DNA of 64,000 bases from a virus (IMGVR_UViG_3300032046_004423:31358-95357), one strand, 5' to 3'. Positions 20,342 to 27,029 are shown, counted from the stretch's first letter. The notes: a model not told the origin generated them from the sequence alone. Numbers and translations: made by a program.

Positions 20342-20983
20342 TTGGGGGATTTATGTATGAAAGAAATAACTGGGGATATTTGGGATTACTATAAGCAGGG
20401 ATATTGGATAGTAATTACTACCAATGGAACTGTGAAGAAAAATGGTGAAGCAGTAATGGGTAAGGGTATTGCTTTGCAGGCTAGGTTGCGATTTCCAGAA
20501 CTACCTCGTAGACTAGGAAGGCTGCTTGATATATATGGCAATATACCTAATATATTTCGTGACCTTCGGGTAATTTCTTTCCCTACTAAGTACCATTGGG
20601 CCTCACCGGCAGATATTGATCTAATAGAAGAAGGTTGCAAGAAGCTTGTGGAGGGACTTAAGCTACTTGGCCTAGATAGACTTTACTTGACCCGTCTAGG
20701 ATGTAGTAATGGTAGACTAGATTGGAAGGATGTCAAGCCAGTCCTTGAAAGATATTTAGATGATAGATTTATAGTAGTGGAGAAGTCTAGAGGAGGAGTA
20801 AGTAATGAAAGTAACTTAATTGGGTTTGAGAAAGTCTATAAAAGTAGTGGCTGTGGTGGTGGTTATTATGCTAACCACGCTGTAAAAAGTGGTATGGATA
20901 ACTCACACCTAAAGTTGGACTGTAAGGCTTGCTATGAGAATAAAACTGGTTGCTTTGCTATTATTACAAAGAAAGAGTCGTAA
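20342..20983 (+). CDS. Macro domain protein (ADP-ribose binding/hydrolase) with a Cys-rich C-terminal extension
   Basis: ITGDIWDY...WIVITTNGTVKKNGEAVMGKGIALQA fits the macro GDIT...IVNAAN...GGGV.GAI signature. RVISFPTKYHWASP fits the FPAISTG...P loop. Confidence 0.5.
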   Translation: MGDLCMKEITGDIWDYYKQGYWIVITTNGTVKKNGEAVMGKGIALQARLRFPELPRRLGRLLDIYGNIPNIFRDLRVISFPTKYHWASPADIDLIEEGCKKLVEGLKLLGLDRLYLTRLGCSNGRLDWKDVKPVLERYLDDRFIVVEKSRGGVSNESNLIGFEKVYKSSGCGGGYYANHAVKSGMDNSHLKLDCKACYENKTGCFAIITKKES

Positions 20984-21010
20984 ACGGGAGTAAGTAAAGG
21001 GGAGGTATTT

Positions 21011-21547
21011 ATGAAAAGGTTTCTTAAAAAGGGTTATGGGATGATGGCTAGTATAGTATCGGTTATACTAGTCCTATGTCTAGTTAGTGGAATTGGTCTA
21101 GTTTCTGCTCAAGGTACCCTCTTCTTGTCTGGAACAATCAACGTGCAGATAGTGCCGCGGCCTCAGGCTTTAGAGGTTGAGTATCTAAGCCCAAGTAATA
21201 ACAGCTGGGTGAATGATACTGTCAATTCAACCTACACTGTAAGTGGTACTAATTGGACTTCGTTTGAAAATAGCACTCCTATAAATCTAACAGGTCTCTA
21301 CACATATAGCACATTTAATATACCTTTTAAAGTAACTAGTAGTGGCTACACAGTAGATAAGATAGTAAGTTTAAGCACTGCTAGCCTATGTATCGATTTT
21401 GCTACTATTAGTGTAAACAGTACCTGGATAAATACAACAGGAGTATCTATACCAGCAAATGGGACTCCTATAACAAACTATGTTATTATCACTACCTATG
21501 GCTGGTCAGGCAATTGTTCAATAATATTGAACTGGAAAGTACTATAG
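21011..21547 (+). CDS. secreted protein rich in NxS/T sequons
   Basis: Signal peptide ...LVSAQG, and at least 10 N-x-S/T sequons in 150 aa. Confidence 0.5.
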   Translation: MKRFLKKGYGMMASIVSVILVLCLVSGIGLVSAQGTLFLSGTINVQIVPRPQALEVEYLSPSNNSWVNDTVNSTYTVSGTNWTSFENSTPINLTGLYTYSTFNIPFKVTSSGYTVDKIVSLSTASLCIDFATISVNSTWINTTGVSIPANGTPITNYVIITTYGWSGNCSIILNWKVL

Positions 21548-21601
21548 GAGTATACTTACTACTCTTAGGCTGGTGGAAATAGTTCGAGAGGAAGGTGAAG
21601 T

Positions 21602-24420: not shown

Positions 24421-24713
24421 TGTAGCACGGTTTTTGTATTAGTATAGATTAAAAAAGGAGGTTTAAATGTTTAAGGTATTAGCTTCTAGGGTAGTAGTCT
24501 TCGCACTTGCTTGTCTCTGGGTTTTTGGGTTGATTTTAGTAGGAATAGCTCTCTATCCAGCCTTTCAATCTAGTATGGAGAGTATTATTGGTCAGACCTG
24601 GCTAATCACTGCCTCACTAGTATGGTACGTTACTACACTAGTACTGATAGGTATACTAGTAGCAGTGAGAGGCTTTAGATTTGTAGGCAAGTGGGAAAAA
24701 GAAAGTAAAAGTA

Positions 24714-26561
24714 ATGAAGATTAGTCTAGCTGAGCTCCCTTTTTACAGTATCCAAGGAGAAGGTGTATACCAAGGAATACCGACTACCTTTGTAAGACTA
24801 CAGGGGTGTAATCTACTAACTCACTGCAGCTGGTGTCTGGTTGATGGTTTAGTTACATATTCTAATAAAGTAGGCAGTGATATTAGTAGGGTTAAGATAG
24901 GTGATAGATTATTAGCTTGCAGCAACCAGGATGAGGTTACAGAAACTGTAGTAACTCAAGTTTTTTCTAGAGAAGTTGAGAACTATTTACTACTAGTCCT
25001 CCCGGAGGGTAGTTCTAGATTTGACCGGGAAAGGTTACTGAGAGTAACTCCCGAGCACCCCGTTATGACTACTCATAGCTGGAAGAGGGCAGAGGAATTA
25101 GTTCCAGGAGATGAGTTATACTATTTATCTGTAGCTCATCAGAATTCAGTAAGAATGACTCTTCACAATCCTCTGTTTAATCCCGAAGTAGTTTCTAAAA
25201 AAATGAGGTCAACTAACTATGAAGAGATAGGCAGGAAGATTTCTAAAGCTAGACTAGCTTTCACTCCAGAGGAGTGGGATGAGATAAATGAGAAAATGCT
25301 AAGCTCTAGAATGGGAGATAGTCCGGAAGCCTCACTCAAGAGGTTTGAGAGTGATACACTGGAATGGAAGCAAGCAAGGGATAGTTTATTTGAGAAGTTT
25401 AAGCAGAGAAAGCATAAGCTGGAACGCTTAGTGGATTGGAGGAAGTTAGCTGGTATGCAGGAAGGGTTATACGATAGTAGTGGAAGAAGGGTATTCTCAG
25501 AAGAGCATAAAAGGGCAATCTCAGAGGTTAAGAGTGAGAATCCTACTAGGCTCTTCGGTAGTGACAATCCGAACTGGCAAGGAGGAATTTCCTCCTATAG
25601 TAGGTGGACATCCAGATTGGAGAGAGAGGCAGTTTATGAAATCCTAACTGGGAGGGATGGGGAGATATGCCAAGCTGAAAGCTGTAATAATAAAACTGAC
25701 TTAGTTATTCACCATGAGGATTTTGATATAACCAATGACTCTGATAATAACTTAGTACTACTCTGCAGGTCTTGTAACAGTTCGGTTAATCATGGAAGAT
25801 ACCCTCTTAAACTAAAGTCCGGGAAAGTTTGCCCTATTCTAGCCGTGAAGAATGGACTACCGATAGTAGAGATTAGGAAAATTAGCAAAAAGGTGAGGGT
25901 ATATAACCTGCATTGCGAGCCTTATAATAACTACTTCGTTAATGGTATCCTATGCCACAACTGTGATACTGCTTACGCCCAAAATGGTAGTAAAGGTATC
26001 TTAATGGAAGTAGAAGATGTGCTCAGTCAGTGTGCTAAGCTAGAGGGAAGGACGTTTAAGCACTGGGTATGTATTACTGGTGGGGAGCCTCTATTTCAGC
26101 CTGAGGCTCTCCATGAGCTAGTTAAAGGACTAAGAAGGTATGGATTCAGAGTTGAGATAGAAACAAACGGAACCATTTCTAAACCCTATTGGTGGACTCT
26201 AGCTAACTGTTGGGTAGTAGACATTAAATGTCCCAGTTCTGGAGTATGTGGAGCTAGTTTGGTTGAGTGGTTTAACTCAAGGGTAGATGACCAGATAAAA
26301 TTTGTTGTTGGTAGCAAAGAAGATTTAAACTTCGCTAAAGCTATGATTATGAAGAATATAGCTAGAAATCCAGTAGTTCTAGTTAGCCCAGTTATTATAC
26401 TTGGAAAATCCACCAAAATACTAACTATTGATAGCCAGGAGTACCAAGACCAGTTTGGAATGTTGTGGATGCAGGAAGTAGTTGAATTTTGTAAAGAATT
26501 AAAGGTAAGATTTAGTTTGCAAGTACATAAAGTTGTATACGGTAACAAAAAGGGAGTATAG
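24714..26561 (+). CDS. queE: 7-carboxy-7-deazaguanine synthase QueE (radical SAM) interrupted by an intein
   Basis: Exteins YSIQGEGVYQGIPTTFVRLQGCNLLTHCSW + CDTAYAQ...WVCITGGEP...VVYGNKKGV align with B. subtilis QueE (GCDYSCSWCDSAF...LLWGNKRGV). The spliced product would be about 239 aa. Confidence 0.85.
   Translation: MKISLAELPFYSIQGEGVYQGIPTTFVRLQGCNLLTHCSWCLVDGLVTYSNKVGSDISRVKIGDRLLACSNQDEVTETVVTQVFSREVENYLLLVLPEGSSRFDRERLLRVTPEHPVMTTHSWKRAEELVPGDELYYLSVAHQNSVRMTLHNPLFNPEVVSKKMRSTNYEEIGRKISKARLAFTPEEWDEINEKMLSSRMGDSPEASLKRFESDTLEWKQARDSLFEKFKQRKHKLERLVDWRKLAGMQEGLYDSSGRRVFSEEHKRAISEVKSENPTRLFGSDNPNWQGGISSYSRWTSRLEREAVYEILTGRDGEICQAESCNNKTDLVIHHEDFDITNDSDNNLVLLCRSCNSSVNHGRYPLKLKSGKVCPILAVKNGLPIVEIRKISKKVRVYNLHCEPYNNYFVNGILCHNCDTAYAQNGSKGILMEVEDVLSQCAKLEGRTFKHWVCITGGEPLFQPEALHELVKGLRRYGFRVEIETNGTISKPYWWTLANCWVVDIKCPSSGVCGASLVEWFNSRVDDQIKFVVGSKEDLNFAKAMIMKNIARNPVVLVSPVIILGKSTKILTIDSQEYQDQFGMLWMQEVVEFCKELKVRFSLQVHKVVYGNKKGV
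24834..25961 (+). mobile_element. Intein (376 aa) with an HNH homing-endonuclease domain, inserted before the third cluster-ligand Cys of QueE
   Basis: Starts with C (CLVDGLVTY, block A). Block B is RVTPEHPVMT. The HNH motif is HHEDFDITNDSDNNLVLLCRSCNSSVNHG. It ends NGILCHN followed by +1 Cys (CDT). Confidence 0.75.
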
Positions 26562-26591
26562 TAGTAGTATTTGCAGATAGGATAGGGTAGC

Positions 26592-27029
26592 ATGGATATT
26601 TTCTTTTGGACTAGGCATGATGAGCATGGTTACTGCTCCAACTTTTATGGGTCTCCTATTGAGGTAAATGGGAAAACTTATCCTACCGTTGAGCATTTCT
26701 ACCAAGCAAGTAAAACTCTAGTTCCCGAGGAGAAAGAGATGATTAAAAACCTACCTACTCCAAAGGAGGCAAAGTTTGCTGGATATCATGTAACCCTTAG
26801 ACCTTACTGGGATGATATTAAGTACAACATAATGCTAGTAGGCTTGAGAGCAAAATTTACTCAGCATGAGGACTTAAGGATGAAGCTACTCAGTACTGGT
26901 AGTTCTATACTGCACGAGAATAGCCCCTGGGATATATACTGGGGTTATGCAAAAGGGAAAGGATTGGATATGCTTGGTAAAGCCCTAATGCAGGTAAGAT
27001 ATGAATTACAGGAAAGAGGGAAGATATAA
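26592..27029 (+). CDS. NADAR domain protein (YbiA-like N-glycosidase / guanine ADP-ribose hydrolase family)
   Basis: FFWTRHDEHGYCSNFYGSPIEVNGKTYPTVEHFYQASK ... LRAKFTQHEDLRMKLLSTG ... SPWDIYWGYA matches the NADAR/DUF1768 pattern. Confidence 0.7.
   Translation: MDIFFWTRHDEHGYCSNFYGSPIEVNGKTYPTVEHFYQASKTLVPEEKEMIKNLPTPKEAKFAGYHVTLRPYWDDIKYNIMLVGLRAKFTQHEDLRMKLLSTGSSILHENSPWDIYWGYAKGKGLDMLGKALMQVRYELQERGKI

Follow-up and report, generated by a model that had tools for sequence, protein, structure and literature searches.

Does a virus that encodes both a macrodomain and a NADAR domain use them to remove ADP-ribose from its nucleic acids? A preliminary description of the window, i.e. the whole 64-kb stretch of viral DNA analysed here, proposed that the two enzymes counter host toxins of the DarT type and protect the virus from both kinds of DNA ADP-ribosylation. 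Each domain is present in the window in one copy. The two folds, their intact active sites, the likeness of the macrodomain to DarG, the phage precedents AdfM and AdfN, and the tandem arrangement of the genes in relatives speak for such a counter-defence. It is opposed by the YbiA class of the NADAR protein, and the scanned window ORFs of at least 100 aa yielded neither DarT nor another ADP-ribosyltransferase.

Identity of the macrodomain protein

The macrodomain gene occupies positions 20357–20983 of the plus strand and encodes 208 aa. It had been described as starting at TTG 20342; this start is rejected in favour of ATG 20357, which is directly preceded by GGGGG. The domain itself was recognised correctly, with an extent smaller than that of the ORF: the stand-alone macrodomain is confined to residues 1–145 (20357–20791), and its homologs are about 145 aa long. 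Of the two Pfam profiles named for verification, PF08719 scores above its cut-off on the NADAR protein, but PF01661 does not reach the gathering threshold on the macrodomain ORF (14.7 bits, E=0.03, against a cut-off of 22). The same profile detects 11 of 43 close homologs of the protein at E<=0.01.

Other searches converge on a single family. In the PDB, phmmer matched the protein only to DarG macrodomains (5m3i, 5m31, 7omu; E~1e-11) and TARG1, and a profile built from the 43 homologs matched DarG (5e-16 to 3e-13), TARG1 (5e-10) and nothing else. The PADLOC model of DarG matched at E=1e-20 and the NCBIfam model antitoxin_DarG (NF048014) at E=1.5e-20, the latter over model positions 21–137 of 338 only and with 73.7 bits against an equivalog cut-off of 250. 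The AlphaFold (AF2) model displays a three-layer alpha/beta/alpha macro fold with pLDDT >90 over residues 1–145. The top four Foldseek matches to it in the PDB are DarG macrodomains (best E=7e-10, target TM 0.76), and the significant PDB matches, among those listed, are macrodomains or designed proteins. Since phmmer, the homolog profile, the DarG models and the predicted structure all point to DarG, the macrodomain is real despite its sub-threshold Pfam score, and is specifically of the DarG/TARG1 type.

The catalytic lysine of this type corresponds to K80 in T. aquaticus DarG and K84 in TARG1, and the asparagine to N22 in DarG (PMC13309987, PMC11543638). K78 of the window protein, located in the motif FPTKYHW, aligns with the first lysine of the DarG motif PTKKHW and is the equivalent of T. 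aquaticus DarG K80; all 43 homologs have it. The counterpart of DarG N22 in the alignment is N29, with Asn in 32 and Asp in 9 of the 43. The C-terminal DarT-binding domain is absent from the protein, as the DarG model matched in the macro part only.

The remaining ~63 aa (20792–20983, plus strand) form a Cys-rich extension beyond the point where homologs stop, and are modelled at low confidence (pLDDT <50). A tblastn search of 179 loci recovered this tail from the window and from no other locus, so that the extension appears unique to this contig among the loci compared. It may represent read-through.

Class of the NADAR protein

The ORF at 26592–27029 of the plus strand, previously called a clear NADAR/YbiA-family domain, proves to be just that. 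Its 145-aa product matches PF08719 over profile positions 1–163 of 163 (E=5.9e-32, 111.6 bits against a cut-off of 35.1), and scores 110.9 bits against a cut-off of 73.7 with TIGR02464, the NCBIfam equivalog-domain model 'riboflavin biosynthesis intermediates N-glycosidase'. It is 41% identical to E. coli YbiA (PDB 2b3w, E=2e-26) and also matches 8bau (E=1e-10). Mapping onto E43/K50 and the last-strand acidic or His residue (E125) of PnNADAR, after PMC11543638, gives the active-site residues E34, K41, E109, D114 and W117. Over 32 homologs, D114 is conserved in at least 90% and the other four are invariant.

The segment LHE109NSPWD aligns with LVEHTEND of YbiA and thus places a Glu, neither Asp nor His, in the last strand. 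The domain covers the protein end to end as a bare core fold, with no extension preceding it. Under the criterion of PMC11125620, by which a last-strand Glu and a core fold free of extensions define the YbiA class, the alignment assigns this stand-alone NADAR to the Glu-type YbiA subfamily. Assignment to DarG1 (BC4488-type) was rejected on account of Glu in place of Asp, the missing basic N-terminal extension and the lack of an adjacent ADP-ribosyltransferase, and assignment to AdfN (T4 gp30.3-type) on account of E109, invariant in the clade, in place of His. The protein falls into a viral clade of its own, with viral relatives at least ~52% identical (profile score >=200 bits) and the closest cellular homologs at most ~50%.

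Gene neighbourhoods and candidate functions

Both genes lie in a plus-strand block of replication and nucleotide genes upstream of the UDG-PolA gene, and are not adjacent in the window, being separated by 5.6 kb. NADAR is located between QueE and DpdA2, its start 31 bp past QueE. Its stop is overlapped by the start of a Cys-rich 114-aa ORF with no family match (27029–27373, plus strand), homologs of which, found by tblastn, adjoin NADAR in two loci (L021, L045) and lie near it in a third (L027). The run of overlapping genes 3' of NADAR includes a MazG/PRA-PH-type nucleotide pyrophosphohydrolase (27352–27750, plus strand; PF01503 E=1e-11, phrog_671 E=5e-27). An ortholog of this gene overlaps the NADAR stop in L028, and the pyrophosphohydrolase is a possible functional partner of NADAR.

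The two genes are brought together in related viruses. Nine distinct related metagenomic loci have the macrodomain gene directly 5' of NADAR, in the same orientation and 99–627 bp away. They comprise seven of the 18 close loci whose upstream sequence extends to 700 bp or more, and two cut by contig ends. In L028 the macrodomain gene lies downstream of NADAR instead, and among more distant NADAR loci a macrodomain gene of the window type is present in 1 of ~145. The two genes standing side by side are therefore most likely a counter-defence pair and not a part of the neighbouring DNA-modification pathway.

Our preferred explanation, which we give an even chance of being correct, is that the two viral enzymes form an orphan pair which removes ADP-ribose from nucleic acids, resembles phage AdfM and AdfN and acts against host toxins. 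We infer its substrates, the toxin it faces and its protective effect as follows. Expressed alongside the replication and DNA-modification genes, the macrodomain would bind ADP-ribose and, by means of its DarG-type K78, cleave it off thymidine-type or other nucleic-acid adducts; the E34/K41/E109 site of NADAR would cleave the N-glycosidic linkage of ADP-ribose to the guanine, perhaps also the cytosine, of DNA or RNA. Together they would erase from replicating viral DNA the marks made by host toxins of the DarT2 or DarT1 kind or by related ADP-ribosyltransferases. All NADAR classes tested so far, YbiA types included, hydrolyse ADPr-guanine in DNA and RNA, and certain classes, again including YbiA types, hydrolyse ADPr-cytidine as well (PMC11125620, PMC11833690, PMC12945103). 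The orphan phage NADAR AdfN is proven to counter DarT1, which phage NADARs from beyond the T4 group also neutralise (PMC11257639), and the macrodomain AdfM is proven to counter DarT2 (PMC13309987). On the other hand, E. coli YbiA, of the Glu class, hydrolyses ADPr-guanine in vitro but did not rescue cells from DarT1 in vivo (PMC11125620), and Johannesman et al. count NADARs of the YbiA kind among the housekeeping enzymes (PMC11257639). The N-terminal extension of DarG1, which the window NADAR lacks, has been proposed to bind DNA (PMC11543638), and SLOG and DUF4326 partners are read by Iyer et al. as processors of soluble ADP-ribose derivatives (PMC9503650). Protection from both toxins is therefore to be taken as no more than plausible, in view of the ADP-ribosyltransferase not found, the YbiA class without DarT1 rescue and the SLOG/DUF4326 partners.

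These partners are seen in the relatives. Longer proteins among the top matches to the macrodomain profile carry SLOG, DUF4326 or NADAR domains, and no Pfam family beyond these and Macro was detected in them, three matching nothing. The SLOG types fused to exactly the macro clade of the window are YpsA, DprA-like and LDcluster4, and a single protein (P0410) has the architecture DUF4326-Macro-NADAR-SLOG (SLOG = YpsA), its macro and NADAR domains being 43% and 37% identical to those of the window. A cpYpsA SLOG gene lies 1–5 kb upstream of the macro-NADAR pair in L004, L022, L025 and L027, and as far upstream of NADAR alone in L006, where a YAcAr gene is also present. Such neighbourhoods fit those described in PMC9503650 and PMC7824862 and suggest the viral SLOG-Macro-NADAR(-DUF4326) network of Iyer, Burroughs, Anantharaman and Aravind, in which the pair would degrade small immune signals derived from NAD+ or ADP-ribose, or toxic metabolites (cyclic ADPR variants, ADPr-1''-phosphate etc.), and not DNA adducts. 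We consider this rather unlikely. Searches of the 64-kb window turned up neither a SLOG nor a DUF4326 or Nudix gene (~45 kb of the source contig lies outside it). Moreover, no report was found of a NADAR or DarG-type macrodomain acting on soluble immune signals, and the experimentally tested NADARs and DarG-like phage macrodomains all acted on nucleic-acid adducts (PMC11543638, PMC11125620, PMC11257639, PMC13309987). The network model and the DNA-adduct model are compatible and do not exclude each other.

The preliminary description had offered as an alternative that NADAR serves the deazaguanine pathway, and gene order in the relatives weakens this proposal. NADAR would then cleave N-glycosidic bonds of metabolites, much as YbiA does with riboflavin intermediates, and clear ribosylaminopyrimidine or other GTP-derived by-products of FolE/QueD/QueE flux to 7-deazaguanine. 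The TIGR02464 score above cut-off and the position just past QueE agree with such a role, as do a DpdA-like gene ~325 bp upstream of NADAR in L038 and the presence of FolE, QueD, QueE, two QueC, QueF and two DpdA-like proteins in the window. However, the Que genes are scattered over ~26 kb among unrelated genes throughout the replication module, and the adjacency of QueE and NADAR therefore counts for little. Direct adjacency of NADAR to a Que or Dpd gene is limited to the window and L038 and is not conserved across relatives. NADAR is positioned differently in L022, L025, L027 and L004, in the order QueE..HNH..DpdA2..(cpYpsA)..macro-NADAR..PolA, and orthologs 59–76% identical have no Que gene in the 10 kb upstream (L005, L006, L037) or in shorter flanks (L007). 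From what is established of the pathway, the FolE-QueD-QueE-QueC-DpdA route leads to free bases and would not need an N-glycosidase. A literature search found no link between NADAR or YbiA and deazaguanine, and the macro linkage and the fusion protein are left unexplained, which makes this role improbable.

Similarly improbable in our estimate is that the macro-NADAR pair, with the SLOG gene in relatives, constitutes a dedicated cassette of an uncultivated sediment virus lineage with 7-deazaguanine DNA and maybe archaeal hosts. The modification system would have taken a Glu-type NADAR into its service, either to remove ADP-ribose from 7-deazaguanine-substituted DNA (cf. the dependence of T4 AdfN on modified DNA) or, as an N-glycosidase, to cleave nucleotides that are deazapurines or derive from GTP. 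Very improbable is a role in RNA repair or quality control, removing ADP-ribose-1''-phosphate or ADP-ribosylated RNA ends or bases after host attack on tRNA or rRNA: a TROVE/vWA (Ro60-like) protein to which the pair might be tied is encoded at 18049–19350, 1 kb upstream of the macrodomain gene, NADARs reverse guanosine ADP-ribosylation of RNA (PMC11833690) and Iyer et al. proposed such roles for Macro and NADAR (PMC9503650), but neither an RNA ligase nor Tpt1/KptA, 2H or polynucleotide kinase turned up in the scanned ORFs, the Rfam search came back empty, for Y-RNA as for all other families, and the TROVE gene is not kept beside either gene in relatives.

If both members of the proposed de-ADP-ribosylase pair act on DNA adducts, AdfM-like and AdfN-like activities would be joined in one linked cassette of this lineage. 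Enzymatic counter-defence against DarT would then be widened to uncultivated sediment viruses and to NADARs of the YbiA class, on whose physiological role opinions still differ. For separating nucleic-acid adducts from soluble ADP-ribose signals as targets, the genes in tandem and the fusion protein DUF4326-Macro-NADAR-SLOG offer concrete constructs. The concept of phage de-ADP-ribosylating anti-DarT factors has already been published, and the gain would thus be incremental.

Comparison with known systems

AdfM, the orphan DarG2-like macrodomain of chimallivirus PhiKZ (gp104), strips DarT2-made ADP-ribose from DNA (PMC13309987). Like AdfM, the window macrodomain is virus-encoded and stand-alone, measures ~150 aa, has no DarT-binding domain and finds its closest solved relative in the T. 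aquaticus DarG macrodomain; the Lys/Asn pair is K78 and N29 in the window protein and K78 and N23 in AdfM. Unlike AdfM, it has no phage-nucleus context, bears the apparently unique tail, and has an activity predicted from sequence. Pseudomonas is absent from the ten commonest organism names of the 72 phage records matching the macrodomain, and no PhiKZ-like phage is among the best 30 of these records, so the protein probably represents a separate lineage. The closest copies in cultured phages, among the matches listed, are those of Moorella MTATph1, Listeria LIS04 and Bacillus SP-15 (42–44% identity).

The DarG macrodomain of DarTG2 (5M31/5M3E/5M3I/7OMU) matches best in sequence, profile and structure alike, and shares with the window protein the motifs VMGxG, FPxKxxW and GCxNGxLxW and the catalytic lysine. 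In contrast to the antitoxin proper, the window protein matches the macro half alone, and no adjacent darT was found.

The window NADAR resembles E. coli YbiA and its class in the bare core, the last-strand E109, the degree of identity and the TIGR02464 match. One member of this class, C. crocatus YbiA, is the antitoxin of the YarT ADP-ribosyltransferase (PMC11125620). In contrast to these proteins, the window NADAR is virus-encoded, belongs to its own clade and is tied to a macrodomain and not to riboflavin, dinG or yarT contexts. It is an orphan in a replication/nucleotide region, as are AdfN (T4 gp30.3) and the Bas32 and Bas60 NADARs, which act against DarTG1 (PMC11257639), but unlike AdfN it is not of the His type. 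A T5-like (Markadamsvirinae) NADAR, that of Salmonella phage UTK0009 and not Bas32 itself, is Glu-type and 43% identical.

The genes of the window are separate, 5.6 kb apart and without a SLOG or DUF4326 gene found beside them, unlike the viral architectures described by Iyer et al. in 2021 and 2022 (PMC7824862, PMC9503650). The likeness to these architectures lies in the macro clade, which is fused to SLOG, NADAR and DUF4326 domains, and in the cpYpsA gene located upstream in relatives.

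Identity of the NADAR and macrodomain proteins

The 145-aa product of the plus-strand ORF 26592-27029 matches the NADAR family PF08719 end to end (E=5.9e-32), in agreement with the preliminary description of this gene. The protein also exceeds the curated cut-off of TIGR02464. Among proteins of known structure, it is similar to E. coli YbiA (E=2e-26) and to the Phytophthora NADAR 8BAU (E=1e-10). In PnNADAR, residues E43, K50, E125, D130 and W133 bind the distal ribose and the phosphates and are required for guanine-ADPr hydrolysis (Schuller et al., PMC11543638). They correspond to E34, K41, E109, D114 and W117 of the window protein, of which D114 is nearly invariant and the others are invariant across 32 NADAR homologs. 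The residue in the last strand separates the YbiA family (Glu) from the DarT1-linked BC4488 family (Asp) and T4 gp30.3/AdfN (His) (PMC11125620). The window NADAR carries Glu and, by this sequence criterion, belongs to the YbiA class.

The window NADAR is about equally similar (41-46% identity) to E. coli YbiA, to the NADAR of one T5-like phage and to archaeal and planctomycete NADARs. Metagenomic viral homologs share about 52-80% identity with it and group with it in a tight clade. No NADAR closer than about 50% identity was found in the cellular genomes searched. These cellular homologs, distant and scattered among Planctomycetia, Methanosarcinales, Ktedonobacterales and Myxococcota, consequently give no host signal. 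One viral-clade locus of 52.8 kb (L005, contig SRR14872661_20641), with a NADAR 76% identical to that of the window, contains neighbouring genes for an AglB/STT3 oligosaccharyltransferase, a DUF2206 protein, an Fe-ADH_2-family protein and a CDP-alcohol phosphatidyltransferase. We take this gene set to resemble an archaeal-type one, which hints at archaea as hosts of the NADAR clade.

The macrodomain ascribed earlier to the upstream ORF nominally fails the Pfam check (14.7 bits with the Macro model, under the threshold), but profile searches (PDB, PADLOC, NCBIfam) and the structure model support the domain, and the Pfam HMM was dropped as sole criterion. Searches of the PDB with phmmer and with a 43-sequence profile matched only DarG macrodomains and TARG1. 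The PADLOC DarG and NCBIfam antitoxin_DarG models match at E of about 1e-20, with the matches restricted to the macro halves of the models, and the match to PHROG 335 has E=2e-29. AlphaFold models residues 1-145 with confidence, and the four best structural matches of the model in the PDB are DarG macrodomains, followed by TARG1. K78, invariant in homologs, is the counterpart of the catalytic lysine K80 of T. aquaticus, and N29 aligns with N22 of DarG. The true start of the gene is ATG 20357, and the reading frame ends at 20983. The final 63 residues form a Cys-rich tail of low model confidence; a search among the NADAR loci found no homologs of this tail.

Linkage of the two genes in related viruses

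A set of 179 loci with NADAR relatives, drawn from viral, metagenomic and genomic collections, was searched with macro and NADAR profiles and with every plus-strand protein of the window. In nine distinct viral loci of the close clade (L002, L003, L004, L020, L022, L025, L027, L036 and L040), NADAR is preceded at a distance of 99-627 bp by a DarG-like macro gene of the same orientation. Seven of these belong to the 18 loci whose upstream sequence reaches at least 700 bp, and two are cut by contig ends. The gene order in a further locus, L028, is NADAR-MazG-(membrane ORF)-macro. Among about 145 more distant NADAR loci, a single one has a window-type macro gene within 10 kb, and in Listeria LIS04 and Moorella MTATph1, the cultured phages whose macro genes are closest, no NADAR lies within 8 kb of those genes. 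The ORFs between macro and NADAR in the relatives are short, variable and mutually dissimilar; inspected by eye for a hidden ART toxin, they contained no obvious candidate.

Downstream, at 27029-27750 of the window, NADAR, a Cys-rich 114-aa ORF and a MazG/PRA-PH pyrophosphohydrolase gene share overlapping stops and starts, and the NADAR and MazG genes of L028 overlap directly (58-868). It is conceivable that the pyrophosphatase acts on released ADP-ribose or nucleotides.

Genome setting

The window comes from a metagenomic contig of 109,607 bp. Genes lie on the plus strand from position 1 to about 39 kb, with a switch of GC skew near 38-39 kb, and this block carries replication, recombination and nucleotide functions, including RusA, a UvrD-like helicase, RNase H and a YqaJ-like nuclease. 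A fusion of an N-terminal uracil-DNA-glycosylase-family domain with DNA polymerase A (33937-36270) is followed by a second polymerase (37247-38917; phrog_1907, DNA_pol_B_2 in relatives), an order kept in L002, L022 and L027. An ATP-dependent ligase is encoded on the minus strand (43242-44177), where a tail-protein-like gene and glycosyltransferases are also found; no capsid or terminase genes were identified within the window. One related contig is listed in IMG/VR, and a viral origin of the contig is likely on such indirect evidence. A promoter and terminator scan, intended to define operons, returned counts at background level.

Several other genes of the window deserve mention. A 664-aa SPFH/Band-7 (flotillin-like) protein is encoded within the replication module (31022-33016). 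A stand-alone TSCPD domain protein (28425-28832), located between an HNH gene and a DpdA2-like gene, resembles B12-dependent ribonucleotide reductases in their C-terminal region (E=4e-29), with no RNR catalytic domain found nearby in the window. An S-adenosylmethionine decarboxylase (PF02675, E=7e-23; 52916-53329, minus strand), surrounded by genes of unknown function and by glycosyl- and methyltransferases, may be an auxiliary polyamine-related gene. A Ro60-like protein with TROVE and vWA domains is encoded at 18049-19350. The usual partners of Ro proteins are Y RNAs. No Y RNA or other structured RNA matched Rfam at gathering thresholds near this gene or in the whole window, and a scan of the window at E<=1 gave nothing credible. 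The ~880 bp preceding the gene (17171-18049) hold only short ORFs of at most 85 aa, with no tRNA-like gene detected.

Possible roles of the pair

Hydrolysis of ADPr-guanine, in DNA as well as RNA, has been shown for all NADAR classes tested, and that of ADPr-cytidine for certain classes, YbiA types included (PMC11125620, PMC11833690, PMC12945103). DarTG1 is neutralised by orphan NADARs of phages (PMC11257639), and DarTG2 by an orphan DarG-like macrodomain of a phage (PMC13309987). The window pair fits this pattern, and we therefore favour, with roughly even confidence and by analogy, a role in de-ADP-ribosylation of nucleic acids, in which macro and NADAR would remove ADP-ribose and so counter host defence. 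E. coli YbiA gave no protection in vivo (PMC11125620), and the window NADAR has no DNA-binding extension.

A soluble signal as the substrate of the pair, a model that rests on associations with SLOG and DUF4326 domains (PMC9503650, PMC7824862), appears rather unlikely. Among 1.84 billion representative proteins, the macro family comprises 1,087 clusters at E<=1e-30, nearly all of them single-domain proteins 141-165 aa long. Of ten longer members scanned, four have SLOG domains or SLOG-type matches, some of them falling under Pfam's own cut-offs. One of the four, P0410 (634 aa), joins DUF4326, Macro, NADAR and YpsA (SLOG) in a single polypeptide, with its macro and NADAR segments 43% and 37% identical to the window proteins. 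In relatives, a cpYpsA (SLOG) gene lies 1-5 kb upstream of the macro-NADAR pair (L004 909-1358, L022 6922-7371, L025 6975-7424, L027 5465-5908), or of NADAR alone in L006 (5239-6029), which also has a YAcAr gene; searches of the 64-kb window revealed no counterpart.

The alternative of the preliminary description, that NADAR serves the deazaguanine pathway, is improbable. The window does carry a complete 7-deazaguanine gene set, dispersed and with some steps duplicated: a canonical QueC1 (3525-4286, 217 bits), FolE (6011-6580), DpdA1-like (6682-7419), QueF (9178-9615), QueD (23552-23905), an intein-split QueE (24714-26561), DpdA2-like (28804-29490) and a divergent QueC2 (29513-30226, 53 bits). 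However, the Que genes are spread over 26 kb among unrelated genes, which makes a single adjacency weak evidence, and their linkage to NADAR is not conserved over the 179 loci. The order in L022, L025, L027 and L004 is QueE..HNH..DpdA2..cpYpsA..macro-NADAR..PolA, orthologous NADARs in L005, L006, L007 and L037 have no Que gene in their flanks, and direct Que-NADAR adjacency recurs in L038 only. To our knowledge, the pathway requires no N-glycosidase, and literature searches returned no paper connecting NADAR/YbiA with deazaguanine. An RNA-repair role of the pair is a minor alternative.

As for the deazaguanine genes themselves, QueF implies preQ1-type chemistry, and the two DpdA-like proteins, weakly related TIM-barrels, could perform two different modifications. 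DpdA2 has no sequence match in Pfam or the PDB; its confident model is a TIM barrel with tRNA-guanine transglycosylases as the best PDB matches (E=7e-5), and with moderate confidence we consider it DpdA-like. A gene for an HNH-like protein (phrog_5200) precedes the DpdA2-like gene by 0.3-1.3 kb both in the window (27956-28495) and in three relatives (L022 4556-5020, L025 4358-4825, L027 2291-2782); this conserved position suggests that the HNH-like protein and the transglycosylase are functionally linked. The QueE intein (~377 aa, about 24834-25964) contains an HNH endonuclease and interrupts the radical-SAM motif CxxxCxxC immediately ahead of its third Cys (...CNLLTHCSW | intein | CDT...); in L022 and L025, the orthologous QueE proteins have no intein.

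That Macro and NADAR occur together in DNA viruses, and are even fused there, was described in 2021-2022 (PMC7824862, PMC9503650), and later phage studies demonstrated both anti-DarT activities (PMC11257639, PMC13309987). To these known systems our analysis adds a conserved macro-NADAR tandem and the YbiA-class identity of the NADAR.
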